A DNA stretch of 64,000 bases from Takakia lepidozioides. Its lineage: Eukaryota > Plantae > Bryophyta. The notes beneath the pieces were generated by a model. It was given only the letters and a program-made list of their open reading frames with translations, was not told where the DNA came from and did not search any database. The first letter of the stretch is position 1. Every line of letters begins with the position of its first letter. The DNA is taken from contig CM060732.1 in the NCBI GenBank assembly GCA_030704615.1, positions 64,976,001-65,040,000 on the forward strand. Reading direction: 5' to 3'. Of this stretch, positions 612 to 29,118 are shown piece after piece. Position numbers and translations under genes: made by a program.

Positions 612-696
612 TGTCGTGCGCATACGTATCGTAACACAACTACATCGCTGTCCAAACCACACCACACATATATGCACAATAAAATAGTCTACCACA
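612..696 (-). repeat. Repeat B2 (85 bp, 3' terminal) of copy 1
   Basis: Direct copy of 1057-1141; reads TGTGG...CGACA on the minus strand. Confidence 0.95.
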
Positions 697-699
697 ATA

Positions 700-1054
700 G
701 ATAAGAAAGCTTGAAAGGACACACACTCTCAACACAAGAAATATGAAATCCCTCAACATCACTCGTTAAAACAGAAGTCGAGCCAGGGGCACCCCAAGCT
801 GTGGGGACTCCACCCCACAACAACCTACACTCCCATCATGAGCACACTCAGTCCTAAACGATGCAGGAGCTCGGTCGCGCAGGCTCAACTCGAGAGAGAT
901 GAGCCGTGCGACTGCCGCTCTCGTGAAGATAAGACGGGTCAGGTGTCAAACTAAACTTGACACCTGATTTAACACTTGACCTAAATCCAAGTGTTAAATA
1001 CAAATAACTAGCTTTATTCTAGCTAGTTTCACACTGTACTTATTTAACTTGACA
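700..1054 (-). repeat. Repeat A2 (~355 bp) of copy 1
   Basis: Direct copy of 11953-12309 with a few substitutions and an indel. Confidence 0.95.
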
Positions 1055-1056
1055 GC

Positions 1057-1141
1057 TGTCGTGCGCATACGTATCGCAACACAACTACATCGCTGTCCAA
1101 ACCACACCACACATATATGCACAATAAAATAGTCTACCACA
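1057..1141 (-). repeat. Repeat B1 of copy 1 (start of the intact B-GC-A 3' LTR)
   Basis: Follows the PPT; joined to A2 by GC, giving the palindrome GACAGCTGTC at 1051-1060. Confidence 0.95.
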
Positions 1142-1143
1142 AT

Positions 1144-1152
1144 CGCCCCCCT
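1144..1152 (-). other. Polypurine tract (AGGGGGGCG) of copy 1
   Basis: G-run followed by AT and then the TG start of B1, the canonical PPT position. Confidence 0.75.
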
Positions 1153-1401
1153 AGCTGGTGGATAGGTCCCTCTACCTCCAGATAGCTACAAGACGTAATA
1201 GCCATAGCCGTACTAAGTCCTCTATCACTGTCCCTATCGTACTCAAACTCTATAGACCAAGAGGCCGGGTACAAGAGTAGCCCCATCGTTAGTCGCCGTC
1301 TTGCAATCTGTGAACTTGAGCCAGGACCTCGTGTGTTCAAGGTCTCCTAGTAGCTGGGCCTTGCGTTTCTTGTTAGCCTTCCATGGTTGTATCCACTCCC
1401 A

Positions 1402-2982
1402 CTATCCAATGCAATGTGGACATAACCAATCCCCATCCGGAACCATCTCAAGAGGTGGAGTCAAGCATCCCATATGCCAACCTCTAGAGCATCGATCACA
1501 CACCAGCATGGTGGCTGCCCCTCTAGCAGACCCACACAACATGCACCTCAAACCTGCAGATACCACTGCCCAGTTTGGGTCTATCCTGCAATCGACATTC
1601 GGAAGGTGACATGGCGTACAATTACGCACATGGTCCTTCCAAGTTATGCCATCCCAACCCTCCAAGACCAAGACTCCTGAGGGCAAGACCTCTCGAACCC
1701 TCAGAATAACACGTCTTGCAGTCACATCCAAGGTCGTAGGAGCAGTTTGCTGCAGATAGACATAGTCACCAGGGTTGAATCTCCGAACCCCAGGACGATA
1801 GCCCCCACCACGTATGGTAGCATACCTCAACGTATCACGGTGTTGTGCAATGGCAAGGTTCTCGAAAGCCATGGGCATGACTCTCTTGAACAACTCTGCA
1901 CGCTGCTCACATGCACGTGCCCACACGTCCGGATCGTCAAGGTTAAGAACTGTAGCAGCTTCTCTGCGAATGGATGTAGGCAAATCCGGCTCTGGGCCAA
2001 AGAGAAGAAAGTATGGTGAGAAGGAGGCAAGTGACGCTTGCTTGCTGAACCTGTAGCCCATGGCTAACCAGGGTAACTGAAGGTCCCAATCTCCTAGGTG
2101 TCCCTTCTGCAAGCCATACTTGCGCAAACCCCTCTTTACTGTCTGAACAACTCTCTCTACCAAGCCATCGGCCTCGGGATGATCCCGAGAAGTGGTGCGG
2201 TGGTCTATCAAGGCTTTGTCACACAAAGCCTGAAACTCCCCCAAGAACTCTCTCCCTTGGTCCGTGAGTACCTCAGCTGGAGCACCGAATCGGCTAAGCA
2301 CACAATCCAAGAATGCATACGCAGCTCCCTCACTAGCCTTATGAGGCAATGGAACCAATTCAATCCACTTGGAGAAGTGCTCCACCATCACCAACACGTA
2401 CTTGTTGTGGCGCATGGTCAGTGGCAATGGCCCTGCGAAGTCAAGACTCCACCTATAGCCCAATCCCATGATCGGAAGAGGGTGCAATTGTGGAGTAGGG
2501 GCGTTGAATGAAGCACGCACCCTGTCACACACCATGCACCTAGCCACAAATTGTTGCACCTCTGTGTGCATACCACGCCACCAATACTGCCCCTGCAGTA
2601 GACTATGAGTGCGTCGCACCCCAAAATGCCCCAACTCCTCATGGGCATGGCGCACTAACCGTGCCCGCTGTGTTGGGTGAGGCACAATCCTCACTCGACC
2701 ATCCTCCCACACTCGGAGCAGGTGTGTCCCCTCCCACTTGAACCTCTTGGCTCGTTGTAGGATCCGATCCCTCTCCTTGGCAGTCACAGTGGCTGCCGTG
2801 TCTCCAGTGCGGAGGTAGTCCAACACAACTGAATCCTCATGTATATCTTTGGCGCCACCTTGCTCATTGCTGGCCTCAGGGTCCTCAGACACTTGATCTA
2901 CAGTCATCCCTGTTGCAGGTCCAACTTGGCCTTCTGCTGCCAAGATACACAGAAATGCAGATACATGCCATCCGGGCACCAT
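1402..2982 (-). CDS. Integrase with C-terminal PHD finger (pol 3' part, copy 1)
   Basis: HHCC (HEELGH...CMVC), DDE (SLDFAGP, LTDQGREF, GLVER), and C4HC3 PHD CMLC...CDRC...HMGC...WLCPHC. Confidence 0.93.
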   Translation of the reverse strand: MVPGWHVSAFLCILAAEGQVGPATGMTVDQVSEDPEASNEQGGAKDIHEDSVVLDYLRTGDTAATVTAKERDRILQRAKRFKWEGTHLLRVWEDGRVRIVPHPTQRARLVRHAHEELGHFGVRRTHSLLQGQYWWRGMHTEVQQFVARCMVCDRVRASFNAPTPQLHPLPIMGLGYRWSLDFAGPLPLTMRHNKYVLVMVEHFSKWIELVPLPHKASEGAAYAFLDCVLSRFGAPAEVLTDQGREFLGEFQALCDKALIDHRTTSRDHPEADGLVERVVQTVKRGLRKYGLQKGHLGDWDLQLPWLAMGYRFSKQASLASFSPYFLLFGPEPDLPTSIRREAATVLNLDDPDVWARACEQRAELFKRVMPMAFENLAIAQHRDTLRYATIRGGGYRPGVRRFNPGDYVYLQQTAPTTLDVTARRVILRVREVLPSGVLVLEGWDGITWKDHVRNCTPCHLPNVDCRIDPNWAVVSAGLRCMLCGSARGAATMLVCDRCSRGWHMGCLTPPLEMVPDGDWLCPHCIG

Positions 2983-3027
2983 CTGCTCGTCCGTCTCACC
3001 ATGCCACCGAGCTCCAGTGTCATCCTG

Positions 3028-4367
3028 CTAGCTCGTGCATGGATTGCGACTCAACCCATCTGCATTGCGATTGACCAAACCCGGTCGATGCACCACCTGA
3101 AAGTCATACTCTTGAAGGATGAGTGCCCACCGTGCAAGCTTCCCCGTAAGCTTGTCTGACTCCATCAACCATTTGAGTGGTTGGTGATCCGTGACAAGGG
3201 TGAAGAGATTGTCGTATAGATAGCACCTGAAGTGTGCCACGGCCCACACTGCAGCTAAGCATTCTCCCTTATATGAGCTATACTTAGACTCTGCAGCATT
3301 GTTCGAGCGGCTAGAATAAGCCACTACGAACTCTCTTCCCTCATCATCCACCTGTGTGAGCACCGCTCCAAGCCCCTGCATGCTCCAATCTGTATGCAAC
3401 TGAAAAGGACGCCCCCTGATAGGTCGTCTCAAGATGGACGCCGAGGTCAACCTCGCCTTGAGCTCTTGAAAAGCTTGTTCTTGCTCATCTTCCCACTGCC
3501 ACTCCTGGTCCACCTTGGTCAGCTTGGTTAGAGCCTTTGCAATGGCACTGAATCCATTAACAAACCATATGTAATAGTTTGCTAACCCCATGAAAGCTCG
3601 AACTCGGCTCACATCCGTGGGGCGTGGAACCTGTGCAATGGACTCTACCTTAGTCTGCTGTATCCCCAATCCTCCAGGATATATCATGTGACCCAGACAC
3701 TGTGGAAAAACTTGCACTTGCCCTGATGTAACTTCAATCCGTGCGTCCTTAAGCGCTCAAATACCCCCTGAAGGTGTCTCTCATGCTCCTCCACCGTAGC
3801 AGTAAAGATGATGATGTCATCTATGTAGCACCGAGCAAACTCCACCCCTGCTAGAATCCTGTCCATGACTCTTTGAAACTCAGCGGGAGCGTTTTTAAGC
3901 CCAAATGGTAAGAACCGCCACTGGTATAGGCAATCCTTCCCGTGCTCATTGATCCCCTAGAATGCCGTCTTTTGCTTATCCGCCTCCTTGATCGGCAACT
4001 GGTGATATCCGGATAGTAAATCCAACGTGCTAAAGACCTTGGAATGCCCAATGGCATCAAAGATCTCCTCTGGTGTTGGCATGGCATACCTATCGGACTT
4101 GGTCTGACAATTTACAGGCCGGTAATCACCGCACATACGTCTCTCCGTCCAATTGCCATAGACATCCTTCTTAGCTGGCATCACTGTGGCTGAAGCATAC
4201 TCTCCACCAGAGAACTCCACCAAACCTGCCTCCCAGAGATCTTGAGTCCTCAACTGAATCAAAGACCTCTCCATGTCACTGTATCTATAGGGTCTTCGAA
4301 AGATTGGCGTATCAGTGGCCAACTCAATACGGATCTCTTGACCCTTCAGTGCTCCCAAGTCCTTCAA
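3028..4367 (-). pseudogene. Reverse transcriptase and RNase H (copy 1, disrupted)
   Basis: RMCGDYRPVN, FSTLDLLSGYHQ, LPFGLKNAP, CYIDDIII, LHTDWS, TDHQPL, NADGLSR; one premature stop and a frameshift. Confidence 0.93.
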
Positions 4368-4819
4368 ACTGAAGGCAAAGCAATTCCTGTAAGCCCTCAG
4401 GAACCGCCGTATACGTCGTCTCTCTCCTCCGGTGACAATGGGTCCAATGTCAGGCTCCCAATTGTCCTCCGTAACTGCAACCTTAAGTCCAGTGGGCTTA
4501 GAGGTAGAGGACGCGTCCCGTGGTTGCTATGCTGCAACCTCTTGAGCAACACCCCCTTCCTGCTCAGTCAATGACAAGGCCTCATTCTGCCCCATCATCT
4601 CATCATTGAGAACCTCCTCAACCCGAGAAGAATCCCCAACCTCATCCATCACAGCTGCCTTGGCTGCCAACTCCCTCTGAACCTCGAGCACCTCCCACGT
4701 GTGCCATGGATGTCTACACCCCGTGGTCCTCACCGGCTCGCCCCCACTCGCTGCCTGTACCGTCTCGGTAGGCAGAGAGACCATGAAGGGGAGTGCACTC
4801 CGCACTCTACGTTGCTCAG

Positions 4820-5790
4820 CCATAGCCAAGCTGATAATCCAGGTCAAGCAATTGAGATCCATTGCTTGCCCCAACACCTGACGACGTGATGCCTAAGAAA
4901 GAGAAGGCACCGCCGTGGTCCCAGTGGAAAACCCCATAGCCCGCTCTTGCTCGTCGGCATTAGGCTCCACTAACTGCTGCAACTGAGCATCCACAGGAGG
5001 CCAGGTCCACCATCCCGAAAAGCATGGGATCCTGGGAAGCTGAGCAGTGTAGGTAATGCTGCTCGTGGTTGACCCACCCTGTTGACCACTGCCAAAGGCG
5101 AACGGTCATCGTGTCTCACATGTTGAGACTGCCTCCCTGTGTCCAAAATGCCATCCACGGTGAGGTGTGCTGGCCGCTGCACCCCATCAAATGCACGCTT
5201 GAGCAGTGCGGGTGGCATCAAATTAGTCCACCATAGTCGTGGACGATGAGCCCGTGATCCCACTCCAGCTGCATCCAGCAGCACTGCTGACCCAAGCCAC
5301 GACCGGACTTGATGCACACTGGCCATCACCCTGGCCCAAGAATCGCCCATCAGTGGCACATTCTCCAAGATGTATGCTGGCGATACAGCTTGATGAAGCT
5401 GCAAGTGGCGCAAAATCCGCACCATCTCCCAAAACAGACCCGTCCTCGAGTCTCGCAATCCATTGCCATGCCCGGCTGATGAATGCCCTTGGCAGGGCCA
5501 ACCTGCAACTACCAGATCAATGGAGCCAACGTGCTCCAAATCCGGCGCCCCCAGCAACGAAATGTCTGCTGGCAAGGCTTGTTGGAATCCACAAACTGCA
5601 GACACTCGCAACAAAGCAGGGTACTGCTGTACCAACTGAGCAACATGGCGCAGTGAGACGCGTCGTGCAGTCTCATCCCTCTCCACATACAGGTAACGCC
5701 TTACCGCACACATGCCTGTAGCACAGCAGCCAATCCGGTGCTGATCCCGCCAAACAAGTCCAAAAGGCAAATGCCTTCATCCGGATACTG
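4820..5790 (-). pseudogene. C5 cytosine DNA methyltransferase domain (DNMT3/DRM-like, unpermuted motif order) inside the retroelement polyprotein
   Basis: Motif I LLDLFGGISTG, II YLYVERD, IV IDLVVAGWPCQG, VI YILENV, VIII AHRPRLWWTNL, IX EQERAMGF, X RRQVLGQAMD; two frameshifts and one stop. Confidence 0.92.
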
Positions 5791-5903
5791 CCACACAATA
5801 GGTGGGTATCCAATGGTGACAATTGAGGTGGTCCTGGTGCAATACCCGCACTCTCCTCCTCTCATGACGGTACAAAAGCCTCTACCCAGGTTTGTTGCAC
5901 CCG

Positions 5904-8515
5904 TCAATCAGCAACCTGCTGCAAATCCTTGCTCGTACCCCACAATGGAGTGTGAGCAACCATGGCAGGCAACTCCGCCATACCATGTATGTCATTCTGC
6001 TCTGCTGGAGGTGGCACATCCTCTGCATGGGCATTACCTTCCAGCAACTCTCCAGGCCAACTAACTGCAGCTGTAAAGGCGGCTAGTGTTGGCATCTTGC
6101 CCGCTGGGCAGCCGCTATACCCCCAATGAATGTCACAGGGAGCTGTGCACGGCGACCATCGCCTGACTGCCATCCAGGCCTATAGGATGCTGACTCCTCC
6201 CAAAAGTCTAGGGTGAAGCCCATGGGGTATAACACTGCCCCACCAACGAGGACATCGTAAGAGACCGTGTCTGTCACAATGGCCGAGCCTCGCATTACTG
6301 AGCCATCGATAGGATGATCCGGCTGCAGTCTAATGGCCAACTGATGCCGTGTCATGCCCTGAGCCTACTCTGATCCTCCCAGAGATGTATATATCTGGAA
6401 AGGACAAGGCTCCATATCCGCCTCCATGAGGCCCAAACCTGCAATAGCAGCTCTGCCCAACATCAGTGGCTGAGCTCCCGAGTCCAACAAGACCCGCAGT
6501 GGCCGGTACTTCTTGCCTGCCGGTCCACTCAAAGTGAAAATGCCTCCCTGGTTGTCTAACAAGACAACTCCAGGTGTCACCATGGCGCGCTCAAAGGCTA
6601 GCCTAGCTGGCAGCTCCGTCAACCTGGCAGCTGCAGCTTGCCAGGGCGCAGCCGTGGCAGTCTTGACCCTCAAATCCGAGGATCCCTCTGCCACTACACC
6701 TTCCACTAACTCCGCAGAAGATGAAGTGACCTCCCCACTCTCACAGAGTGTTGCTGCTAGTCTGAACACTGCAGCAGGCCTCACCCCCGGCGTCGCAATC
6801 ATGGTTGCCGAGAACAATGGGGCTTGACACACAGAGGTGGCTGCCCCTAATAACACACCGGCTGCACTAGCCTTGGTAGCGGGTACAGTGCTGCACGTGT
6901 AGCTCTCCCCAATGGCATAGTAACCTCCGCCGGTAACAGTCGGGCGAGAACTAGGTGCCATGGATGGCGTCGACACAGTCTCCGCCAATGTGAATGACTG
7001 AGGAAGCCTCGCCTGACGGCTTGCCTCCCCACGCTGTGGATCCAATTCCACCTCTGCACCTCGTGGCTCAGGAACTCGTGCTGCTCCTGGAGTCACGGCT
7101 GCAGCAGACTCCACCTGCTCTAGTGGTAGTGCTGCTCCGCACATGAATCCCATGCCTCCCATATCTCCTCCCTCAGGAGCAGGAGGTGGAACCATCCCGC
7201 CTGGGAGCCGGTACCGCTGAGCTATAGCCATGGCAGCGAGCCTCTGCTCTAGGTGCTGAAGCCGATTGGCCATGCCTTGGTCAACACCCTGACCTCCGCG
7301 TCCTTGGCCATGTGGAGCTTGCCCTTGGCCTGCACCTCGTGCCCGACCACCTCGTCCTCTTTGGGGGTCCACCTCGCCCCGGCCACCATTGTTCCCTTGG
7401 AACTGGCCTGGGCGCAACTCAGGATGCAAGTCATAACACTGGGCATCTCCATGCCCATACTTGCCACAATGCCCACACTGCAACTGTGCAGGTTGCGCTT
7501 GTGCCGGCCTTCTGCCCCGTGCAGGCATGTCCTTGCCAAATCCAATTGTAACAACTCGCTCCTCCACCATGTTGAGCTCAATCCGCTCAGCCAGCAGAAA
7601 CACATCTGCTAATGTGGGTTGGGCTGCTTGTAACAGGGTTGCATCTCGCACCCTTCTCTTGAGCTCCTTGTCCAGAATTCCATACCAAAACTCGATTGCT
7701 GAGCTTCAGTAACCCCTTGGGTCACACTTATCAAGCGCCTCATACGAGTGTACGCCTCTCGCAGGCTCTCACTGGGTTTGCGCTGGAAGTCTTGCAAACT
7801 TCGCAGCTTCTCTGTTCGTACACCTTGGTAGTTCCTCCGCAACTCCTGGAAGAACTCCACCACCGGGTTGAATCTAGGCACATGTGTTGTAGTCGTGGCA
7901 GGAGGAGTAGTAGCACCTTTTGAACTGGTAGCACCTACAGAAGTACCAGCACTACTTGTTCCACTACTAGTGCTGGCAGTGGGAGATATGCGTACTGATG
8001 CAGCTACTGGTCGCGTCGTGCCTCGAGTAATGGAGACGTAGTCAGGTGACCAATACATCATCCACTCCTCAATCTCTGCTTCATGTCCTCGCCTGAACTC
8101 GTGGTAATCGTCCATAGGCGGGCCTTCCAAATGCTGGAACAGTCCCTTCCACGCCATGAATGGGGTGAATAGCTGTGGATTGCGCATCTGCTGCAAATCA
8201 CACCAGCTGTCAAACTCCTGGATAAAGTAATCAACTCGATTGTGCCCACAGCTCCAGAGTACCTACGAGGCCCCTTGGTAGCTCCATACATCTCCTCCAT
8301 GTCGTCCCACAACAATGGCGAATGAAACTGCACACCTATTGATGAAGCCTCTGAGTTGTGTCTGACTCTGCACTAGCTGAGGGTGGAGGTGGAGGTGGTC
8401 TGAAACGAACACCTCGTCTGGTGAACCCACTCTCACTGCTACTGCCTGTAGCCGTGTTCCCCTCAGAACCCTGGGTAACTCCGTGTGACACTCACAATGT
8501 GCACCTCCTCCACGT
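5904..8515 (-). pseudogene. Gag with zinc knuckle plus aspartic protease (copy 1, frameshifted)
   Basis: Gag-like QRKPSESLREAYTRM, knuckle CGHCGKYGHGDAQC, RG-rich tract, protease VLLDSGAQ...DVLVG. Confidence 0.88.
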
Positions 8516-9032
8516 GACACTATAAGGCTCTAGTACTAATAATAGTGACACGGGTGGGCACCTGTTGCAGTTTAAGGGTCATATCCCAATGGCTCAGGGC
8601 ACCTGCACCTGCATCCACCGCAAGAACTCCTATGGTTGGCTGGTCATCAACCCAGCCTCACCATAGAAGAAGAAACACTGGTGGTCTTGCTGGTCATCAC
8701 TCTAGCCTCACCACCGACAGCATACTCTAGGATTGACCGGTGATCAAATCCGGCCTAATCCCTATGAAAGCAAGCGCCCACACAAAACCAACATGGCGCA
8801 CAGTCAAGCATGCAGATGTTGGGGGAATCCAAACACAAGAAATCAAAACATCAACACCCCCACACCAAAATCCAGCTGCAATGCTGATCCTGCAGAATAG
8901 CCCAGCCTAAAACCCCGGACTGACTGGCCTCCACCAAGAGAGGCTTTGGCAACTACAAGTACAAGGTAATGAAAATAGTACAGAGATGGAGGGGAAGAAT
9001 AGAAGCCCGACCAAGCAAGATCTAATCCTGAT

Positions 9033-9778
9033 CTATGCTATCAACTGCCAGACTTCTCTCAAAGTGCCTCGCTCTGCATGATGGTAAGGTGTAGGAGGTA
9101 TATCTATGTCCAGAAACCTGCCACTAACCTTGTCCCAAGCTACAGTAGCTCGCTCTAACCAACCCTCCTCCTCTTTCTGCTAGGTAGAGACAAAGCAATA
9201 CTCCCTATCTCCCGCTCACTGAATACTAAAGAAAACAAAGGTAGGGTCTGATAGTCTCTCAACTCGAAAGCTTTGAGACGGTGCGGGTGTCCTCATTGCG
9301 AATGACTGCATCTCCTTCACGCACAACAAACATGTCATGCTGATGAACCCCCGCTCGTGGTTGCCCTGTGCAGAGCGTATCCGGCTGCAACCATGTCTGA
9401 TTGCACAAACTTGTGTAGCTCCTGCTCCTCAGCTCCAGTACACCACGGCCTTGTGGCTGAACACCTTGGTCCCCGGGGCTGTCTTTGGCTGTGTTCCAAG
9501 CCTAGCTTTCACCCACTTTGGTATTTCAGCTACAGCTGCAGAACTGCTGGCTCCAACAGAGTTCTGACTGTCCAAGGCGATATTGAGGCCCTCAACGCCA
9601 ACTACAGCAGTTTGTTGTCCACTACTAATGCCTGACTCCCAGTATGCAATCAACTCGTCCAACTGTTCTCCACTCAAATCAGTCTGAGTTCCTTGGGAAA
9701 CATAAATCTTGTCCCCTTGGTGCACAGGCTAAGAGAAGAGACCTGCCCTTCAATCACGTCCTCATTTCCCCCAGCCAT
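9033..9778 (-). pseudogene. Extra ORF upstream of gag (unknown function), copy 1
   Basis: Near-identical to 20954-21703; no recognised motif. Confidence 0.5.
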
Positions 9779-11199
9779 ACAAGGAGTACATCCCCAGATT
9801 TATCTCTCATGTAGACCAGAACAGGTTCTAGAAACAGGATTGTGGATCTTTCATGGCACATTCACACTCTAAAAATTCCATAGATTTTTAGCAGAGTCCC
9901 AAAAACAAAAAAAAAACCAGGTCTAGATAGGTAGATATCCCCTTTCTGCAGCTATCCCCTCAAAAACTGAGTCAAACGGAGCTCATTTGACAAAGATATG
10001 ACCAACCAGGCTCTATAAACATAACACTTTTTTTCTTTTTAAAAAATAAAATAAAAAATAAGACAAAACAAATACAAAGAAAGAAAACTCTATTGTCTTG
10101 GTTCCCTGTTCCCTGGTTCCCTGTTCCTGTATATGTGCCCAAAGTTCTAAATTGGTACCAGTGGATCTTAGGTATTGTTCATATTCGCCTGGCAGCCGTT
10201 GTCTCTGTGGCGAACGCAGCCCGCCAGTCTCCCGCAATCCTGTCAGCTCAACTTGAGCAACACAGATCGTTCTCGTGCAGGCACCATGATAGCTCCAAAA
10301 CTATGGGCGGCCCAGGAAGACGACGTCTCCTCACTTAATGAGAACGTTGAGTGCAAAAGGGACAATGGTATAACGGACAGCTGAAAGCGGCTCACAGTAA
10401 GGCCGGGGAGGCTATCTTTTGGCAAAGAAATTCAACGTTCATGCACAAACTAGTACCAACCCTGGACGAGTTCCCTGGACGCGTCTAGACTCCCCACCAA
10501 GCATGCTTGCCTTGCTGGAAAGGGCTGACCCGACCCATTCACTTCTTCAAGCACAGAAGAGAAGGAAAATCCTTGGTGACGAAGGACTTGGTGCTTGAGG
10601 TGCTGAAACTGCTTCGATGGGCCTCCCTCAACATTGGTTTGAGCCTCTTCCTTCTCAGATGCTGCCTGAGTCTGCAAATGCTGCACGCAGCATGCTCCTA
10701 ACTCCCACCTTCAATTCTTAGCTTGCATGTCTTACTTTGTCAGTCTCTTGCTTGTTGCCACTGCTGCTAGGCTGGTGATGCATATCTGCAGAGGACCAGC
10801 AGCTCCCTCCCATGTGTGGAGACCCCTTCTTGAGTCCATCCTCATCCATTGTACAGTTCTGATGTCTATCTAAGAGGTGGGAAGAGATATGGCTGGTGTT
10901 CAGGGATAAACAATGTTGCAATGAGGCAGCTGCAAGTTGCCAAATCAAAGACTTAGAAGGCCATCAGCTCCTTTGGTTGTGCCCTGTTTCTTTTACGCTC
11001 AAGCTCTCTCTGAATGGTCTCTTCCTGAGCTGACAGTGCCCAACCTGTCGACTTCTCCACATTTTCTTTCACATCTCTACCGTCAGGTTGCTCTACCGAG
11101 ACGTCGCCGCTCCCGGTTCTTCCTGTTCTTAACAACGTCCTCTGCCTCTTCAACCTTCAGCTTCTCTTCTTCTCTCATGAGAGGTTGCAATCCAGGGGT

Positions 11200-11530
11200 T
11201 CTCCCAATATTTTGCAACTTCCCATGTCATTTCCGCTGGGAACTGCACCATTCTCAGAGATCCATTTGTCTCGAATGCTTTCAAGTAGAGCTCGGTGGAC
11301 GGTTCTCATTCTGCACCTTCACATACCAGCATTGTAGCGGCTTGCGTGCAAAGTGTAGCCTCATACTCTGATAAGCCTGTCTTGAGACACCAACGTAATA
11401 TAGAATCTTTTCCTCATAAAAAATGGCATACACACTTGCCAGTCAGGTTTGCTGCAATCTGCAATCATACCCTCCTCAGTCAAGAATGCTACGAACTCGA
11501 GATCACTCAAAGATAAAGCGTTTCCACCTA
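11200..11530 (-). pseudogene. Captured fragment of a GIY-YIG domain gene (GRXS16 N-terminal/cyanobacterial-like)
   Basis: Reading across frameshifts gives LSDLEFVAFLTEEG…YYVGVSRQAYQSMRLHFARKPLQCWYVKVQ…LLESIRDKWISENGAVPSGN. Confidence 0.65.
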
Positions 11531-11936
11531 CTTGTGCCTGTCGCCTTTGCAGTGCATCTTGCTTCCGCCTATATTCTTCTTGTGCCTGGAATGTGAGCTG
11601 CCGTGTTTGTCTTGGTGTTCATTGGCTGCTGCCAGTTTTTACTTCCATGTTTCCATTATCCGAATTTGTTGTCTGCTTTCCCATCCAGATCCATGTACTC
11701 CGCAGCTTTCATCTTCTCCTTGATTTGCCTTGTGTACTCCAAAGCCTCTAGTGACTTGGTAGCTTCAGCGACTGCAACAACAGTGACGGCTCTGGCATCG
11801 TCATCCTCCAGGCGTTTCAGGGCACGCTGAATCTTGTGGTCACATTCAATGATATGTTTCTCAAACTAAGCACTACTTACACACAAGTAATCTGCAAGTG
11901 CACCCTCAAACTCCTACCTTGCACTCACAGGTAAGA

Positions 11937-11953
11937 GCTCATCTCTCTCGAGT
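11937..11953 (-). other. Self-priming primer-binding site of copy 1
   Basis: GCTCATCTCTCTCGAGT (11937-11953) is the exact reverse complement of 12143-12159 inside repeat A1; no TGG-starting tRNA PBS. Confidence 0.85.
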
Positions 11954-12309
11954 GATAAGAAAGCTTGAAAAGGACACACACTCTCAACACACGAAATGTG
12001 AAAATCCTCAACATCACTCGTTAAAACAGAAGTCGAGCCAGGGGCACCCCAAGCTGTGGGGACTCCACCCCACAACAACCTACACTCCCATCATGAGCAC
12101 ACTCAGTCCTAAACGATGCAAGAGCTCGGTCGCGCAGGCTCAACTCGAGAGAGATGAGCCGTGCGACTGCCGCTCTCGTGAAGATAAGACGGGTCAGGTG
12201 TCAAACTAAACTTGACACCTGATTTAACACTTGACCAAAATCCAAGTGTTAAATACAAATAACTAGCTTTATTCTAGCTAGTTTCACACTGTACTTATTT
12301 AACTTGACA
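11953..12309 (-). repeat. Repeat A1 (5' terminal) of copy 1
   Basis: TGTCAAGTT...TTATCA on the minus strand; copy of 700-1054. Confidence 0.95.
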
Positions 12310-18465: not shown

Positions 18466-18821
18466 TGTCAAGTTAAATAAGCACAGTGTGAAACTAGCTA
18501 GAATAAAGCTAGTTATTTGTATTTAACACTTGGATTTTGGTCAAGTGTTAAATCAGGTGTCAAGTTTAGTTTGACACCTGACCCATCTTATCTTCACGAG
18601 AGCGGGAGTCGCGCAGCTCATCTCTCTCGAGTTGAGCCTGCGCGACCGAGCTCCTGCATCATTTAGGACTGACTGTGCTCATGATGGGAGTGTAGGTTGT
18701 TGTGGGGTGGAGTCCCCACAGCTTGGGGTGCCCCTGGCTCGACTTCTGTTTTAAAGAGTGATAGTGATGGATTTCATATTTCTTGTGTTGGGAGTGTGTG
18801 TCCTTTCTAGCTTGTTTATCA
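18466..18821 (+). repeat. Repeat A1 of copy 2
   Basis: Copy of 29206-29559 (about 6 substitutions, mostly CG transitions, plus 1 indel); ends TTTATCA. Confidence 0.95.
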
Positions 18822-18835
18822 CTCGAGAGAGATGA
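18821..18835 (+). other. Self-priming PBS of copy 2
   Basis: ACTCGAGAGAGATGA is the exact reverse complement of 18618-18632 in A1. Confidence 0.85.
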
Positions 18836-19019
18836 AACTGTATCTAGTTTTCTAGTGCTAAGCTAGATGTGACGTTCTTGTTTTTAAGCACTATTATAAT
18901 ATAGCTTGGTTACGAGAGCCTGCAGTTAGACTGGCTATGTGTGCCTAGTGGAGCATAACAGGAAGACGGGAAACACTTGAAGTGTCGCTGCAGCAGTTCA
19001 AAGCTAATAATATTCTCGT

Positions 19020-19245
19020 CTTCCTGGCAGGCACTGCAGCAGGCTGTCTGCCTTGTCCTGAAAGTGTGGGGGGCCTGTCCTCATCAACAGCTGCAGCATA
19101 GGAATGGCTTCTGCCGCTACCATGGCTTGTGCTTTTCCCACCTCGGCAGGACTGGAGGACCAGGCTTGACGTAGTAGGAACAAAGCCTCAAGTGCTGCTT
19201 CCTGTGCTCCTTCATTGCCAGCCTCTAGTGCACCCACCAGCTGCG
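19020..19245 (-). pseudogene. CSI1: Captured fragment of CELLULOSE SYNTHASE INTERACTIVE 1-like ARM protein
   Basis: [60 protein letters not shown] matches the CSI1 region just before its C2 domain. Confidence 0.8.
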
Positions 19246-19452
19246 CGGACCTGCTCTAGTTACGCACAAACCTGTTCGGCATCTTTGATTTTGGACATGC
19301 CTGTATATTGCTCATTGTGTGGCTTCAGATTGAGCCCACCGTGACTTGCAAGCACTCTCCCATGAATGAGCCTGTCCAAGCTTTTATGCACTTGGAGTTT
19401 CTCGCATGAATGTGTCAATGTGCAGCGGCGGTGAGAGAGGAAGGCACGAGCC

Positions 19453-19775
19453 ATGCCGGCAGGTCATGGATTGCGATCGCGCACCAGGGATCTGTTCTCG
19501 CGGCCATTCAGGCAGAAGGGGTACATTCACTTGACCACGTATCTGAGAAACTACAGGATTGGAGATTATGTGGACATCAAGGTGAATGGCGCTGTGCACA
19601 AGGGCATGCCCCACAAGTTCTACCATGGCCGCACTGGTATCGTCTGGAATGTCACCAAGCGGGCTGTTGGTGTAGTTGTTAACAAGCAGGTTGGTCCCAG
19701 GATCATTCGGAAGCGCATCCATGTGCGCGTCGAGCATGTCCAGCCGTCCTGCTGCCGTGAAGGAGTTTGTCCGCG
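19453..19775 (+). pseudogene. RPL21: Captured, 3'-truncated, intronless 60S ribosomal protein L21
   Basis: [19 protein letters not shown]…[12 protein letters not shown]…[13 protein letters not shown]. Confidence 0.93.
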
Positions 19776-20953
19776 CCACAACAGTGGCGCTTACTGCCGG
19801 TATTGTAGGTTTTTTTGTTCCTCCTAAGTAGGGCATGAAAACACCATGTTCTAAGGTTTCTCCTAGTGCATTGAAGCTACTTGGCAGGGTTGGCTTGTTC
19901 TGAGGAGGCTGGTTGCTGAGCCGCATTTTGTTGGTTTTCTGAGACCACTCCAAGCTCGCAGCTTATAGATATAAGCAGCACGCCTTTTGCTCCATGGGTA
20001 GATCTATGGTCGCCCGAAGTGTTTCAACATTCTATTGCCTATGGGATTGTAGGCAGAAATCCAAAAACCAAAAATAGAGACGAGGAGAAGCTCTGGATTC
20101 ATGATGCAACTGGCAGGTGGATGTCACTGCAGAGGTGAGAAAAATACTGATGGCCAGTGGAAGGGAGCAGGTCACTGCTGCGTTGAGGGTTGCAAAAGGG
20201 TGTGCACCTTCATTGTAGATAAACGAGGCGCTTTGGACCCTTTAACGAGGCTTGGAGTTGGACGTTTTGAAGCTGGTTCCATGTCCAGCGCATGCTGTTG
20301 GAGCACCTGGTAGCCCATCCACAATTGCAGTGGGGGCTGAGAGCTGGTGCCTTCGAGGATTCAGTGGTTCGGAGTACGAGCTGCCTTTGTTGCTATTGAT
20401 GGTGCTGGAGAATCGCTTGAGACAAGGGCCTGCGGGTACAAGCCCTGCTGGTGTGAGAGCTGCTGCAGGCATTAGAGTCGGGCAGTAGAGTCGGCTATTG
20501 GTGAGACGAGATAGAAGCACTTTGGGTCTTCAATCCTGAGTGCCTCAGTACTTGAGCGTTGTCGGCACCAGCTTGATTTTGCATAGACCTGGAGGGGAAC
20601 GGCCTTGGGAACCTGTAGAGAACCAAAGAACAGGGAACCAAGACAAGTATTGAAAAAGAAAAAGAAAAAGGAGTTTTTAAAAGGGAAAAGAAAAGAAAAA
20701 GGTGTTATGTTTAAAGAGCCTGGTTGGTCATATCTTTGTCAAATGAGCTCCGTTTGACTCAGTTTTTGAGGGGATAGCTGCAGAAAGGGGATATCTACCT
20801 ATCTAGACCTGGTTTTTTTTGTTTTGTTTTTGGGACTCTGCTAAAAATCTATGGAATTTTTAGAGTGTGAATGTGCCATGAAAGATCCACAATCCTGTTT
20901 CTAGAACCTGTTCTGGTCTACATGAGAGATAAATCTGGGGATGTACTCCTTGT

Positions 20954-21703
20954 ATGGCTGGGGGAAATGAGGACGTGATTGAAGGGCAGGTCTCTTCTCT
21001 TAGCCTGTGCACCAAAGGGGACAAGATTTATGTTTCCCAAGGAACTCAGACTGATTTGAGTGGAGAACAGTTGGACGAGTTGATTGCATACTGGGAGTCA
21101 GGCATTAGTAGTGGACAACAAACTGCTGTAGTTGGCGTTGAGGGCCTCAATATCGCCTTGGACAGTCAGAACTCTGTTGGAGCCAGCAGTTCTGCAGCTG
21201 TAGCTGAAATACCAAAGTGGGTGAAAGCTAGGCTTGGAACACAGCCAAAGACAGCCCCGGGGACCAAGGTGTTCAGCCACAAGGCCGTGGTGTACTGGAG
21301 CTGAGGAGCAGGAGCTACACAAGTTTGTGCAATCAGACATGGTTGCAGCCGGATACGCTCTGCACAGGGCAACCACGAGCGGGGGTTCATCAGCAATGAC
21401 ATGTTTGTTGTGCGTGAAGGAGATGCAGTCATTCGCAATGAGGACACCCGCAACCGTCTCAAAGCTTTCGAGTTGAGAGACTATCAGACCCTACCTTTGT
21501 TTTCTTTAGTATTCAGTGAGCGGGAGATATGGGAGTATTGCTTTGTCTCTACCTGGCAGAAAGAGGAGGAGGGTTGGTTAGAGCGAGCTACTGTAGCTTG
21601 GGACAAGGTTAGTGGCAGGTTTCTGGACATAGATATACCTCCTACACCTTACCATCATGCAGAGCGAGGCACTTTGAGAGAAGTCTGGCAGTTGATAGCA
21701 TAG
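20954..21703 (+). pseudogene. Extra ORF upstream of gag (unknown function), copy 2
   Basis: Three overlapping frames (MAGGNED…, …ELHKFVQSDM…, MFVVREGD…WQLIA); conserved in copy 1. Confidence 0.5.
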
Positions 21704-22224
21704 ATCAAGATTAGATCTTGTTTGGTCGGGCTTCTATTCTTCCCCTCCATCTCTGTACTATTTTCATTACCTTGTACTTGTAGTTGCCAAAGCCTCTCTT
21801 GGTGGAGGCCAGTCAGTTCGGGGTTTTGGGCTGGAATATTCTGCAGGATCAGCATTGCAGCTGGATTTTGGTGTGGGGGTGTTGATGTTTTGATTTCTTG
21901 TGTTTGGATCCCCCCCAACACTTGCATGCTTGACTGTGCGCCATGTTGGTTTTGTGTGGGCGCTTGCTTTCATAGGGATTAGGCCGGATTTGATCACCGG
22001 TCAATCCTAGAGTATGCTGTCGGTGGTGAGGCTGGAGTGATGACCAGCAAGACCACCCGTGTTTCTTCTATGGTGAGGCTGGGTTGATGACCAGCCAACC
22101 ATAGGAGTTCTTGCGGTGGATGCAGGTGCAGGTGCCCTGAGCCACTGGGAATATGACCCTTAAACTGCAACAGGTGCCTACCCGTGTCACTATTAGAATT
22201 AGTAATAGAGCCTTATAGTGTCAC

Positions 22225-25029
22225 GTGGGGGAGGTGCACATTGTGAGTGTCATCACGGAGTTACCCAGGGGTTCTGAGGGGAACACGGCTACAGGCAGTA
22301 GCAGTGAGAGTGGGTTCACCAGACGAGGTGTTTGTTTCAGACCACCTCCACCTCCACCCTCAGCTAGTGCAGAGTCAGACACAAACTCAGAGGCTTCATC
22401 AATAGGTGTGCAGTTTCATTCGCCATTGTTGTGGGACGACATGGAGGAGATGTATGGAGCTACCAAGGGGCCTCGTAGGTACTCTGGAGCTGTGGGCACA
22501 ATCGAGTTGGATTACTTTATCCAGGAGTTTGACAGCTGGTGTGATTTGCAGCAGATGCGCAATCCACAGCTATTCACCCCATTCATGGCGTGGAAGGGAC
22601 TGTTCCAGCATTTGGAAGGCCCGCCTATGGACGATTACCACGAGTTCAGGCGAGGACATGAAGCAGAGATTGAGGAGTGGAGGATGTATTGGTCACCTGA
22701 CTACGTCTCCATTACTCGAGGCACGACGCGACCAGTAGCTGCATCAGTACCAATATCTCCCACTGCCAGCACTAGTAGTGGAACAAGTAGTGCTGGTACT
22801 TTTGTAGGTGCTACTACTCCTCCTGCCACGACTACAACACATGTGCCTAGATTCAACCCGGTGGTGGAGTTCTTCCAGGAGTTGCGGAGGAACTACCAAG
22901 GTGTACGGACAGAGAAGCTACGAAGTTTGCAAGACTTCCAGCGCAAACCCAATGAGAGCCTGCGAGAGGCGTACACTCGTATGAGGCGCTTGATAAGTGT
23001 GACCCAAGGGGTTACTGAAGCTCAGGCAATCCAGTTCTGGTATGGCATTTTGGACAAGGAGCTCAGGAGAAGGGTGCGGGATGCAACCCTGTTACAAGCA
23101 GCCCAACCTACATTAGCAGATGTGTTTCTGCTGGCTGAGCGGATTGAGCTCAACATGGTGGAGGAGCGAGTTGTTACCATTGGATTTGGCAAGGACATGC
23201 CTGCACGAGGCGCAGCTGCCAGCCCATAGGCACAAAGGACTGCCCAACAACGTGGTCAGGGGGGCAAGGTTTCCCAACCCAAGTTCCATGGAGCTTACAG
23301 GGAACCTCAAGTGTAGAGGCCCATGGCATCTTTTGCAGGCCAAAAACAACCAGGGGTGATATGTTGGACATGTGGAGGACCCCATGTCAAGAGAGATTGC
23401 CTAGAGAGTGGCAGAAGGCCGGCACAAGCACAGCCTGCACAGTTGCAGTGTGGGCATTGTGGCAAGTATGGGCATGGAGATGCTCAGTGTTATGACTTGC
23501 ATCCTGAGTTGCGCCTAGGCCAGTTCCAAGGGAACAATGGTGGCCGGGGGCGAGGTGGACCAGCCCAGAGAGGACGAGGTGGTCGGGCACGAGGTGTAGG
23601 CCAAGGGCAAGCTCAACATGGCCAAGGACGCGGAGGTCAGGGTGTTGACCAAGGCATGGCCAACCGGCTTCAGCAGCTAGAGCAGAGGCTCGTTGCCATG
23701 GCTACAGTGCAGGCGGTACCGGCTCCTAGGCGGGATGGTCCACCTCCTGCTCCTGAGGGAGGAGATATGGGAGGCATGGGATTCATGTGCGGAGCAGCAC
23801 TACCACTAGAGCAGGTGGAGTCTGCTTCAACCGTGACTCGAGGAGCAGCACGAGTTCCTGAGCCACAAGGTGCAGAGGTGGAGTTGGATCCACAACGTGG
23901 GGAGGCAAGCCGTCAGGCGAGGCTGCCTCAGTCATTCACCTTGGCGGAGACAGTGTCAACGCCATCCATGGCACCTAGTTCTCGCCCGACTGTTACCGAG
24001 GCGGAGGTTTCTATGCCATTGGGGAGAGCTACACGTGCAGCACTGACACCTGCTGCCAAGGCTAGTGCAGCCGGTGTGTTGTTGGGGGCAGCCACCTCTG
24101 TGTGTCAAGCCCCACTGTTCTCGGCAACCATGATTGCGACGCCGGGGGTAAGACCAGCTGCAGTGTTCAGACTAGCAGCAACACTCTGTGAGAGTGGGGA
24201 GGTCACTTCATCTTCTGTGGAGTTACTGGAAGGTGTAGTGGTATAGGGATCCTCGGATTTGAGGGTCAAGACTGCCACGGCTGCGCCATGGCAAGCTGCA
24301 GCTGCGAGGTTGACGGAGCTGCCAGCTAGGCCAGCCTTTGAGCGCGCCATGGTGACACCTGGAGTTGTCTTGTTAGACAACCAGGATGACATTTTCTCTT
24401 TGAGAGGACCGGCAGGCAAGAAGTACCGGCCACTGCGGGTCTTGTTGGACTCGGGAGCTCAGCCACTGATGTTGGGCAGAGCTGCTATTGCAGGTTTGGG
24501 CCTCATGGAGGCGGATATGGAGCCTTGTCATTTCCAAATACAGACATCTCTGGGAGGATCAGAGCAGGCTCGGGGCATGACACGGCATCAGTTGGCCATC
24601 AGACTACAGCCGGATCATCCTATCGATGGCTCAGTAATGCGAGCCAAGGCCATTGTGACAGACACGGTCTCTTACGATGTCCTCGTTGGTGGGGCAGTGT
24701 TATACCCCATGGGCTTCACCCTGGACTTTTGGGAGGAGTCAGCATTCTACAGGCCTGGATGGCAGTCAGGGGATGGTCGTCGTGCACAGCTCCCTGTGAC
24801 ATTCATTGGGGCTATTGCGGCTGCCCAACAGGGCAAGATGCCAACACTAGCCACCTTTACAGCTGCAGTTAGTTGGCCTGGAGAGTTGCTGGAAGGCAAT
24901 GCCCATGCAGAGGATGTGCCACCTCCAGCAGAGCAGGATGACATGCATGGTATGGCGGAGTTTCCTGCCATGGTTGCTCACACTCCATTGTGGGGTACGA
25001 GCAAGGATTTGCAGCAGGTTGCTGATTGA
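22225..25029 (+). pseudogene. Gag (two zinc knuckles) plus aspartic protease, copy 2
   Basis: One frame with in-frame stops; CWTCGGPHVKRDC and CGHCGKYGHGDAQC; VLLDSGAQ. Confidence 0.9.
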
Positions 25030-25129
25030 CGGGTGCAACAAGCCTGGGTAGAGGCTTTTGTACCGTCAGGAGAGGAGGAGAGTGCGGGTATTGCACCAGG
25101 ACCACCTCAGTTGTCACCATTGGATACCA

Positions 25130-25460
25130 CACCTATGTGTGGCAGTATCCGGATGAAGGCATTTGCCTTTTGGACTTGTTTGGCGGGATCAGCACCGGAT
25201 TGGCTGCTGTGCTACAGGCAGGTGTGCGGGTAAGGCGTTACCTGTATGTGGAGAGAGATGAGACTGCACGACGCGTCTCACTACGCCATGTTGCTCAGTT
25301 GGTACAGCAGTACCCCGCTTTGTTACCAGTGTCTGCAGTTTGTGGATACCAACAAGCCTTGCCAGCAGACATTTCGTTGCTGGGGGCGCCGGATTTGGAG
25401 CAGGTTGGCTCCATTGATCTGGTAGTGGCAGGTTGGCCCTGCCAAGGGCATTCATCAGCC
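25130..25460 (+). pseudogene. N-terminal half (motifs I-IV) of the DNMT domain, copy 2
   Basis: LLDLFGGISTG…YLYVERD…IDLVVAGWPCQGHSSA, then joined to sequence downstream of motif X. Confidence 0.9.
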
Positions 25461-25725
25461 ACCTTTGATGGTCTCTCTGCCTACCGAGATGGTACAGGCA
25501 GCGAGTGGGGGCGAGCCGGTGAGGACCACGGGGTGTAGACATCCATGGCACACGTGGGAGGTGCTCGAGGTTCAGAGGGTGTTGGCAGCCAAGGCAGCTG
25601 TGATGGATGAGGTTGGGGATTCTTCTCGGGATGAGGAGGTTCTCAATGATGAGATGATCAGGCAGGATGAGGCTTTGTCATTGACTGAGCAGGAAGGGAG
25701 TACTGCTCAAGAGGTTGCAGCATAG

Positions 25726-28700
25726 CAACCACGGGATGCGCCCTCTACCTCTAAGCCCACTGGACTTAAGGTTGCAGTTACGGAGGACAATTGGGAGCCT
25801 CACATTGGACCCATTGTCACCGGAGGAGAGAGACGACGTATACGGCGGTTCCTGAGGGCTTACAGGAATTGTTTTGCCTTCAGTTTGAAGGACTTGGGAG
25901 CACTGAAGGGTCAAGAAATCCGTATTGAGTTGGCCACTGACACGCCAATCTTTCAGAGACCCTATAGATATAGCGACATGGAGAGGTCTTTGATTCAGAT
26001 GAGGACTCAAGATCTCTGGGAGGCAGGTTTGGTGGAGCTCTCTGGTGGAGAGTATGCTTCAGCCACAGTGATGCCAGCCAAGAAGGATGTCTATGGCAAT
26101 TGGACGGAGAGACGTATGTGCGGTGATTACCAGCCTGTAAATCATCAGACCAAGTCCGATAGGTATGCCATGCCGACACCAGAGGAGATCTTTGATACCA
26201 TTGTGCATTCCAAGGTCTTTAGCACGTTGGATTTACGATCCGGATATCACCAGTTGCCGATCAAGGAGGCGGATAAGCAAAAGACGGCATTCTGGGGGAT
26301 CAATGAGCACGGGAAGGATTGCCTATACCAGTGGCGGTTCTTACCATTTGGGCTTAAAAACGCTCCGGCTGAGTTTCAAAGAGTCATGGACAGGATTCTA
26401 GTAGGGGTGGAGTTTGCTCGGTGCTACATAGATGACATCATCATCTTTAGTGCTACGGTGGAGGAGCATGAGAGACACCTTCAGGGGGTATTTGAGCGCT
26501 TGAGGGCGCACGGATTGAAGTTACATCCGGGAAAGTGCAAGTTTTTCCACAACCAGATTGAGTATCTGGGCCACATGATATATCCTGGAGGATTGGGGGT
26601 ACAGCAGACTAAGGTAGAGTCCATTGCACAGGTTCCACGCCCCACGGATGTGAGCCGAGTTCGAGCTTTCATGGGGTTAGCAAACTATTACAGACGGTTT
26701 GTTAAGGGATTTAGTGCCATTGCAAAGGCTCTAACCAAGCTGACCAAGGTGGACCAGGAGTGGTAGTGGGAAGATGAGCAAGAACAAGCTTTTCAAGAGC
26801 TCAAGGCAAGGTTGACCTCGGCGCCCATCTTGAGACGACCTATCAGGGGGCGTCCTTTTCAGCTGCATGCAGATTGGAGCATGCTGGGGCTTGGAGCGAT
26901 GCTCACACAGGTGGATGATGAGGGAAGAGAGATCGTAGTGGCTTATGCTAGCCGCTCGAACAACGCTGCAGAGTCTAAGTATAGCTCATATGAGGGAGAA
27001 TGCTTAGCTACAGTGTGGGCCGTGGCACACTTCAGGTGCTATCTATACGACAATCTCTTCACCCTTGTCACGGATCACCAACCACTCGAATGGTTGATGG
27101 AGTCAGACAAGCTTACGGGGAAGCTTGCACGGTGGGCACTCATCCTTCAAGAGTATGACTTTCAGGTGGTGCATCGACCGGGTTTGGTCAATCGCAATGC
27201 AGATGGGTTGAGTCGCAATCCATGCACGAGCCAACAGGATGACACTGGAGCTCGATGGCATGGTGAGACGGACGAGGAGATGGTGCCCGGATGGCATGCA
27301 TCTGCATTTCTGTGTATCTTGGCAGCGGAAGGCCAGGTTGGACCTGCAACAGGGATGACTGTAGATCAAGTGTCTGAGGACCCTGAGGCCAGCAATGAGC
27401 AAGGTGGCGCCAAAGATATACATGAGGATTCAGTTGTGTTGGACTACCTCCGCACTGGAGACACGGCAGCCACTGTGACTGCCAAGGAGAGGGATCGGAT
27501 CCTACAACGAGCCAAGAGGTTCAAGTGGGAGGGGACACACCTGCTCCGAGTGTGGGAGGATGGTCGAGTGAGGATTGTGCCTCACCCAACACAGCGGGCA
27601 CGGTTAGTGCGCCATGCCCATGAGGAGTTGGGGCATTTTGGGGTGCGACGCACTCATAGTCTACTGCAGGGGCAGTATTGGTGGCGTGGTATGCACACAG
27701 AGGTGCAACAATTTGTGGCTAGGTGCATGGTGTGTGACAGGGTGCGTGCTTCATTCAACGCCCCTACTCCACAATTGCACCCTCTTCCGATCATGGGATT
27801 GGGCTATAGGTGAAGTCTTGACTTCGCAGGGCCGTTGCCACTGACCATGCGCCACAACAAGTACGTGTTGGTGATGGTGGAGCACTTCTCCAAGTGGATT
27901 GAATTGGTTCCATTGCCTGATAAGGCTAGTGAGGGAGCTGCGTATGCATTCTTGGATTGTGTGCTTAGCCGATTCGGTGCTCCAGCTGAGGTACTCACGG
28001 ACCAAGGGAGAGAGTTCTTGGGGGAGTTTCAGGCTTTGTGTGACAAGGCCTGGATAGACCACCGCACCACTTCTCGGGATCATCCCGAGGCCGATGGCTT
28101 GGCAGAGAGAGTTGTTCAGATAGTAAAGACGGGTTTGCGTAAGTATGGCTTGCAGAAGGGACACCTAGGAGATTGGGACCTTCAGTTACCCTGATTAGCC
28201 ATGGGCTACAGGTTCAGCAAGCAAGCATCACTTGCCTTCTTCTCACCATACTTTCTTCTCTTTGGCCCAGAGCCGGATTTGCCTACATCCATTTGCAGAG
28301 AAGTTGCTACAGTTCTTAACCTTGACGATCCGGACGTGTGGGCACGTGCATGTGAGCAGCGTGCAGAGTTGTTCAAGAAAGTCATGCCCATGGCTTTCGA
28401 GAACCTTGCCATTGCACAACACCGTGATACGTTGAGGTATGCGATCATACGTGGTGGGGGCTATCGTCCTGGGGTTCGGAGATTCAACCCTGGTGACTAT
28501 GTCTATCTACAGCAGACTGCTCCCTACAACTTTGGATGTGACTGCAGGACGTGTTATTTTGAGGGTTCGAGAGGTCTTGCCCTCAGGCGTCTTGGTCTTG
28601 GAGGGTCAGGATGGCACAACTTGGAAGGATCATGTGCGTAATTGTGCGCCATGTCACCTTCCGAATGTCGATGGCAGGATTGACCCAAACCTGGCAGTGG

Positions 28701-29116: not shown

Positions 29117-29118
29117 AT

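Follow-up and report, generated by a model that had tools for sequence, protein, structure and literature searches.

The closest described relative of the element reported here is KnitGypsy-Dnmt3 of the alga Klebsormidium nitens (de Mendoza et al. 2018, PMC5890265), which joins Gypsy domains to an unrearranged Dnmt3-type domain under purifying selection and has DIRS-like repeats in the order A-coding-B-A-B. Its DNA methyltransferase (DNMT) domain lies in the Pol ORF together with reverse transcriptase (RT) and RNase H (RH); no methylation was detected when it was expressed in yeast, a result that the authors called inconclusive. The text of that paper treats the Gypsy DNMT as an acquisition in the Klebsormidium lineage and leaves the role of retrotransposon DNMTs open. 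It also describes SymbioDIRS-Dnmt3 of Symbiodinium, a tyrosine recombinase element with a Dnmt3 domain and A-B-A-B repeats, for which de novo CG methylation was shown in yeast.

Other systems share single features. The EpiLTRs of Cymbomonas and Euglena (bioRxiv 10.64898/2026.05.21.726589) combine a DNMT with a chromatin reader in an LTR element, but their DNMT is sister to DNMT4 and is accompanied by a DAM and a chromodomain, and they are called distinct from the streptophyte Gypsy-DNMT3 elements. Tf1/Sushi and the plant Tcn1 elements (Neumann et al. 2019, PMC6317226) prime on their own 5' repeat but possess a chromodomain and ordinary LTRs, in contrast to the PHD finger and split repeats found here; the words PHD and Marchantia are absent from the main text of that paper. 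The Gypsy-7a_cRei element of Chlamydomonas (bioRxiv 10.1101/2022.06.16.496473) has a PHD finger in its Gypsy polyprotein, is active in the laboratory and shows an insertion bias to intergenic DNA, but no methylase is among its listed domains.

The element that we analyzed lies in the moss Takakia lepidozioides, in a stretch of 64,000 nucleotides that is referred to below as the window. It resembles KnitGypsy-Dnmt3 in its DIRS-like split repeats and in an unrearranged Dnmt3 domain with its key residues and, at the level of the family (the window copies themselves are broken), purifying selection. It differs in belonging to land plants and in placing the DNMT in the ORF of Gag and protease (PR), before a stop codon. 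Because that stop separates the DNMT from the RT, the element is a variant rather than a plain member of the KnitGypsy-Dnmt3 type. From SymbioDIRS-Dnmt3 it is set apart by a DDE integrase (IN) and 4-bp target duplications. A PHD finger, self-priming, target duplications and a junction palindrome do not appear in the text of PMC5890265, although its Fig. 4c domain drawing may show a PHD or an ORF break. Streptophyte elements are mentioned with citation of PMC5890265 in PMC12344493 and in the EpiLTR preprint (bioRxiv 10.64898/2026.05.21.726589), whose trees may include land-plant copies. Our literature search, which covered mainly openly available papers, found no description of the land-plant form, the stop or the circle model discussed below, and these are likewise absent from the consulted parts of PMC5784723, PMC6453930, bioRxiv 2021.02.12.428880, PMC8616336 and PMC2836005. 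The element is genuine, ancient and conserved, and represents, in land plants, a variant of a type that has been known from algae since 2018. Its host range, the conserved stop, with the stoichiometry that this predicts, and the anatomy of its replication are new.

Two broken copies of a Gypsy element with a DNMT3-type domain

Copy 1 is an 11.7-kb element on the reverse strand (612..12309) with TG...CA ends, flanked by the target duplication ATGT at 12310-12313 and 608-611. Copy 2 (18466..29645, forward strand) is about 96% identical, has the target duplication ACCA and is inserted into the integrase of another Gypsy element. The remains of that decayed host element, at 15668-18465 and from 29646 (forward strand), comprise a dUTPase fragment (E 2.5e-07), RNase H and the interrupted integrase. 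In copy 1 the broken ORF1 region (4527..8470, reverse strand, start position approximate) encodes Gag, protease, DNMT and a linker, with a Gag segment at 8271-8300 that matches the start of gene models from Marchantia, a zinc knuckle at 7436-7477 and the protease DSG motif at 6470-6490. The likewise broken ORF2 region (1402..4526, reverse strand) encodes RT, RNase H, an H2C2 motif and the integrase core, with the RT YIDD at 3810-3827 and the integrase D, D and E at 2431-2451, 2254-2268 and 2143-2160. The domain order PR-RT-RH-IN, with a Gypsy-type RT and a DDE integrase, is that of Ty3/Gypsy elements, as are the TG...CA ends with a short target duplication, and the best solved-structure match of ORF2 from an intact metagenomic relative, L034, was Ty3 Gag-Pol (E 4.4e-98). 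The two complete, identical terminal LTRs of such elements are, however, replaced by the layout A...B-A-B; the element works like Gypsy but in permuted form. Membership of the DIRS or tyrosine recombinase elements is ruled out by the DDE integrase and the target duplications, and no recombinase match occurred among the ORFs scanned. Nor is it a chromovirus: the integrase ends without a chromodomain, and a PHD finger stands in its place.

The DNMT3-type C5 methyltransferase domain of copy 1 occupies 4830..5776 of the reverse strand, with motifs I (5734-5766), II (5672-5701), IV with PCQ (5480-5518), VI with ENV (5354-5374), VIII with AHRPRLWWTNL (5219-5251), IX (4929-4967) and X (4845-4886) in normal order. 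An earlier note, made from the window sequence alone, had placed these motifs in the consensus frame between protease and RT. All of them are present, unpermuted, between the protease DSG and the RT, but in copy 1 they are spread over three frames by frameshifts near 5703 and 4990, with a stop at 4893-4895, and in copy 2 motifs I-IV share one frame before a 682-bp deletion at 25461/25462 removes motifs VI-X. Both window copies are broken. Upstream of the DNMT, ORF1 of copy 1 is further interrupted by a frameshift near 5804 and a stop near 5905, of which the stop is common to both copies. Since this stop is shared and copy 2 has lost most of the domain, copies without DNMT may still have moved in trans. 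Over 612-10039 there are 17 one-base gaps in copy 1 relative to copy 2 and 2 the other way, an imbalance that suggests that some of the breaks in copy 1 may be assembly errors. In public DNA contigs (runs X1, X3 and X4, representing one sample, which may be the one that the window came from) the family is very abundant, with 73,244 matching contigs in X1. Of the family depth in that run, 99.6% lacks the stop at 4893-4895. The frameshift near 4990 is absent from 42% of the depth in X1 and 48% in X3, and that near 5703 from 3% and 42%, figures to be read with further contigs ending loose at both frameshift places.

The resemblance to DNMT3 and the difference in motif order from DRM, both proposed in the earlier note, were borne out. 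The longest open piece of the domain matches Pfam DNA_methylase (E 1.2e-12), and among solved structures its best matches are DNMT3A/B/C (E 1.6e-17), with DRM (8.9e-10) and M.HhaI (4e-7) behind them, a ranking on which an origin from DRM was rejected. Identity to DNMT3 is about 21-23%. The predicted structure of the L034 domain (pLDDT 90.8) has its best fold matches in DNMT3A/B, with DNMT3A first; a search of the ESM Atlas returned generic C5-methylase clusters only. In sequence and fold the domain is closest to DNMT3 and not to DRM, DNMT2 or bacterial enzymes.

Homologs of the DNMT piece number 90 at a similar length and 50 among longer proteins; the search for the latter covered 470-2000 aa and so was blind to a fused protein of 2,400 aa, and its outcome is not counted against fusion. 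Named matches came from Marchantia polymorpha, M. paleacea, Riccia, Calypogeia, Sphagnum and Closterium, the best at 62-70% identity. Among the matches returned there was no named Klebsormidium sequence; Closterium relatives with the DNMT before the RT were found. Six Marchantia models of 1,248-1,281 aa (Mp4g09160, MpVg00370, MpVg00540, Mp5g06330, Mp5g06860 and Mp8g17980) have the Gag-PR-DNMT organization. Of the 15 members listed for the Marchantia cluster, four have MpVg names (MpVg00370, MpVg00540, MpVg00480 and MpVg00690), a prefix that we take to denote the male sex chromosome. In the DNMT tree the domain of the window element falls within a group of named liverwort and Sphagnum sequences. 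In a second architecture (P0129-P0133, P0222, P0227) a single ORF reads RT-RH-DNMT-IN-PHD; these proteins separate as a branch in the DNMT tree (47 rows) and again in the RT tree (15 rows). The two trees agree in outline, and both are drawn with midpoint rooting and without host DNMT3 or Klebsormidium sequences. The lineage in which the methylase stands between RNase H and integrase, with the same PHD at the end, comprises P0126, P0128-P0133, P0188, P0222 and P0227. Among viral contigs, 13 pattern matches yielded no relatives.

It could be imagined that the domain is a piece of a host DNMT3 captured once and decaying neutrally, and its breakage in both window copies is what such a history would leave. 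The two length classes of homologs, with named representatives in liverworts, Sphagnum and Closterium, the uninterrupted ORFs and the absence of the 4893-4895 stop from nearly all of the X1 family depth tell against it. PCQ and EN[VG] are retained in 32 of 32 and AHRxR in 31 of 32 long proteins hand-picked from the homolog lists. The dN/dS comparison called for by the earlier note gave 0.10-0.18 for the in-frame DNMT piece of the window in four of eight pairs (Nei-Gojobori), dS being saturated in the other four. Between L034 and another metagenomic relative, L035, the ratio is 0.12 for the DNMT and 0.165 for the RT; within a decayed moss family it is 0.36-0.65, as expected of decayed copies. 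By these ratios the DNMT is kept under purifying selection at the family level. Given the relatives in Marchantia, Sphagnum and Calypogeia, the retained catalytic motifs and the low dN/dS between families, the domain is not a one-off capture, and with open frames in L034 and the Marchantia models it is not a domain that is never in frame; neutral decay of a single acquisition is hardly credible.

Between the primer-binding site and the coding region, a slot of about 1.9 kb (10040..11936, reverse strand) is unrelated in sequence between copies 1 and 2. In copy 2 the 1.86-kb slot after the primer site contains an intronless fragment of ribosomal protein L21e (19453-19752, forward strand, Pfam E 3e-45). 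The variable slot resembles a cargo site that takes up captured host RNA; copies of the moss family show no such variation in it. The gag of copy 2 also has an extra 201 bp (23209-23409, corresponding to point 7516 of copy 1) that encode a further zinc knuckle-like stretch.

Elsewhere in the window, ORFs of 581, 273 and 160 aa without Pfam matches lie next to copy 1 (12419-15439, reverse strand) and are probably accessory frames of another retroelement. A single-exon PLS-type PPR gene (31463-34633, reverse strand) has E, E+ and DYW domains, internal repeats of about 303 bp and DYW as its last residues; its best matches are from gymnosperms, Diphasiastrum, mosses and liverworts, the best-scoring 120 rows being 41-62% identical, and by itself this gene narrows the host to land plants and no further. 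A fragment of a Replitron HUH endonuclease lies at 42058-42522 (reverse strand; Pfam PF21859, E 3.5e-12), and an ORF of 379 aa at 47343-48482 (forward strand), with a weak SWIM zinc finger match just under the cut-off, is possibly a piece of a Mutator-type transposase.

A conserved stop codon between methyltransferase and reverse transcriptase

The earlier note regarded the element as encoding a single polyprotein. This view has to be given up, because both window copies and their relatives have a stop between DNMT and RT. In copy 1 an in-frame TAG is followed by CAA CCA (4521..4529, stop at 4527-4529, reverse strand), and the same TAG CAA CCA occurs in copy 2 (stop at 25723-25725, forward strand). 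From 52 metagenome loci fetched, 37 extend to the start of the RT, and every one of these shows an in-frame stop at the corresponding position (27 TAG and 10 TAA). CARYY follows the stop in 36 of these 37, the exception having two tandem stops, and the full CARYYA in six; by comparison, CARYY follows only 94 of 7,488 TAG triplets overall. CARYYA is found in the window copies and in L006, L034, L035, L046, L047 and L051. The 37 loci are not independent and represent about five lineages, including that of the window, since 31 of them belong to one decayed moss family that groups with Sphagnum proteins and has the context CARYYC rather than CARYYA. The uninterrupted L034 encodes a Gag-PR-DNMT protein of 1,369 aa, then TAG CAG TTA, then an RT-RH-IN-PHD protein of 1,047 aa, all in one frame with no other break. 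The six Marchantia models end at the matching place, a comparison of protein ends in which the DNA context of the stop is not visible.

In tobacco mosaic virus (TMV), CAR-YYA after a stop directs readthrough (PMC2194720; PMC3441728), and the window copies have the same six-base context after their in-frame stop. Stops of this type in retroelements, in the sources consulted, sit between gag and pol, whereas here both protease and methylase are upstream. From its position and context we consider it likely that the stop is read through at a low rate, which would make Gag-PR-DNMT the principal product and leave RT-RH-IN-PHD as a minor one that arises by readthrough. Since the stop follows the DNMT and precedes the RT, the methylase is expected at the level of Gag and apart from the PHD.

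The stop could instead be bypassed by splicing, by a separate pol transcript or by reinitiation. Marchantia and Sphagnum gene models (P0095, P0096 and P0135) join DNMT to RT and skip the linker, in the moss family an ATG occurs three codons past the stop, and the gag-pol stop of Tca2, as far as the consulted text goes, shows that TMV-style readthrough is not obligatory. Yet ORF1 and ORF2 share one frame, and lineages with DNMTs as far apart as 46-66% identity have retained CAR-YY. Neither the window family nor L006, L034 or L051 has the ATG. Gene predictors commonly create introns to get past stops. A bypass is quite improbable, and low-level readthrough is the reading retained below.

Split repeats, priming and a proposed circle

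On the reverse strand of copy 1 the repeats are ordered A1...B1-A2-B2, with A1 (11954..12309, 356 bp, 98% identical to A2), B1 (1057..1143, 87 bp), A2 (700..1054) and B2 (612..698, ending in CA); A measures 355-356 bp and B 86-87 bp, and the metagenome locus L024 has the same layout. Target duplications of 4 bp were found at six insertions, and L024 excludes 5 bp. The primer-binding site (11937..11953, reverse strand) lacks the TGG start of the tRNA type and is of the self-priming type: a predicted self-primer inside A1 (12143..12159, reverse strand) is complementary to the 17 nt that follow A1. This complementarity is 17, 15 and 17 nt in copy 1, copy 2 and L024 and 10 nt in one further case, and the longest chance match in 300 control 40-mers was 9 nt; in L034 the site could not be clearly located. 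The self-primer sequences differ between the window and moss families. Self-priming is recognized in PMC6317226 by complementarity of at least 10 bp starting 0-5 bp downstream of the 5' repeat, and the window element has just this arrangement. Reverse transcription is, on these sequence grounds, very probably self-primed.

A G-rich polypurine tract (1144..1156, reverse strand) stands before B1 and not before A2; a search for a hairpin before it gave no consistent fold across four sequences. With the tract in this position, the cDNA would have B-A at both ends and its tips would not be the ends used by integrase. Those ends would lie inside the cDNA, at the B1/A2 junction, where a palindrome, GACAGCTGTC (1051..1060), equals the two ends of the element joined through 2 bp. 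The junction is palindromic in both window copies and in L007, L024 and L043, and is one base off in L034. We propose that the cDNA tips are joined into a circle and that integrase would open the upstream junction at the GACA-GC-TGTC palindrome, yielding A-internal-B-A-B. Cleavage at an internal palindrome has been reported for the integrases of foamy virus and HIV (PMC2884000).

Several observations bear on this model. Variants specific to one copy recur in its two A and its two B repeats, which supports it, as does the difference in the A2/B2 joint between the window copies; the near identity of this joint in L024 and L043 speaks against it. A symmetric circle predicts that the permutation A-B-A-internal-B should also occur, and it was seen at none of 13 loci (11 sites). 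Taken together, the repeat sequences incline us slightly toward integration from a circle opened at the internal palindrome. The A-internal-B forms of L018, L020 and L039 were considered as insertions of 1-LTR circles and set aside, as later recombination explains them: the right flank of L020 is shared with L043, which has the full B-A-B. L020 and L043 are one insertion site without and with A2-B2, that is, a loss by recombination between B repeats. In L025 a remnant of the primer site occurs at the A/B joint, in a rearranged locus.

The PHD finger and the role of the methyltransferase

The C4HC3 PHD finger (1411..1545, reverse strand) noticed earlier at the end of the integrase was recovered by profile search (Pfam E 3.1e-10). 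Its nearest solved relatives are the fingers of CHD4, PHF12, KDM5A/B, ATXR5 and PHF21A. These are readers of unmethylated H3K4, the ligand of the ADD domain. By analogy, the PHD may well guide integration into chromatin with unmethylated H3K4, a function to which we give somewhat better than even credence.

The earlier note had likened PHD and DNMT to the reader-writer pair of ADD and methyltransferase in DNMT3, by which PHD-recognized chromatin would become methylated. Both domains do occur together in both architectures, and the relatives of the finger read the ligand of ADD. The parallel loses much of its force, however, because the PHD terminates the integrase, in the ORF that lacks the DNMT, so that the two domains are expected in different amounts; RT, RNase H and integrase lie between them, and the protease would separate them. 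PHD fingers of Gypsy elements also occur elsewhere: that of Chlamydomonas Gypsy-7a_cRei has no named methylase in the consulted text and is tied to insertion bias. A reader-writer pair is very unlikely, and targeting of integration by the PHD is the more likely function.

What the methylase does can be framed by where it is made. The first frame would supply Gag, protease and the DNMT3-type methyltransferase, and the leaky stop would add few RT, integrase and PHD domains. Many methylase molecules would thus be packed into particles at the level of Gag and would methylate the element's own new cDNA or circle before integration, and the new copy would arrive already marked like old host repeats. 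Self-methylation is, judging from the domain and its position, rather probably the job of the methylase. The element carries no signature of it: its CpG depletion (0.48-0.58) is no stronger than that of the neighboring PPR gene (0.33). Between copies, mutations affect 5-6% of CG, 6-8% of CHG and 2-3% of CHH sites, a spectrum that is compatible with host methylation and does not distinguish it from methylation by the element itself.

The domain might also be kept at Gag level for another target, such as host chromatin, rival elements or RNA, or serve mainly in nucleic-acid binding within the particle. Gag-level output would far exceed the needs of one 11.7-kb cDNA, and the element has not lost CpG in excess. 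The algal Gypsy DNMT showed no activity in yeast, and its authors discuss RNA targets and a brake on transposition (PMC5890265). Against this, all catalytic motifs for DNA cytosine methylation are kept, the fold is that of DNMT3 and not DNMT2, the domain of the second lineage, lying between RNase H and integrase, is tied to the cDNA machinery, and the SymbioDIRS-Dnmt3 domains methylate CG (PMC5890265). Another target is accordingly unlikely. Our preferred account, held with modest assurance, is a land-plant Gypsy family whose Gag-level methylase is packed in particles and is predicted to mark its own cDNA before integration. The full picture, in which an old and widespread streptophyte lineage would unite a leaky stop, a capsid-level DNMT3, pre-methylation of cDNA, obligatory integration of 2-LTR circles at the palindrome and PHD guidance, is offered only tentatively and is doubtful as a whole. 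If true, the element would be a transposon that sets its own epigenetic marks before it arrives, and bryophyte cells would have a second source of de novo methylase.

With open frames in Marchantia polymorpha, the question of the DNMT role can be taken up in a genetic model for which methylation mutants exist. From the conserved stop, much more methylase than RT or integrase is predicted, and the repeat anatomy provides a testable account of how DIRS-like split repeats come to stand in a Gypsy element. Unnamed DNMT3-like copies of this kind may confound counts of host methyltransferases in liverworts and mosses.
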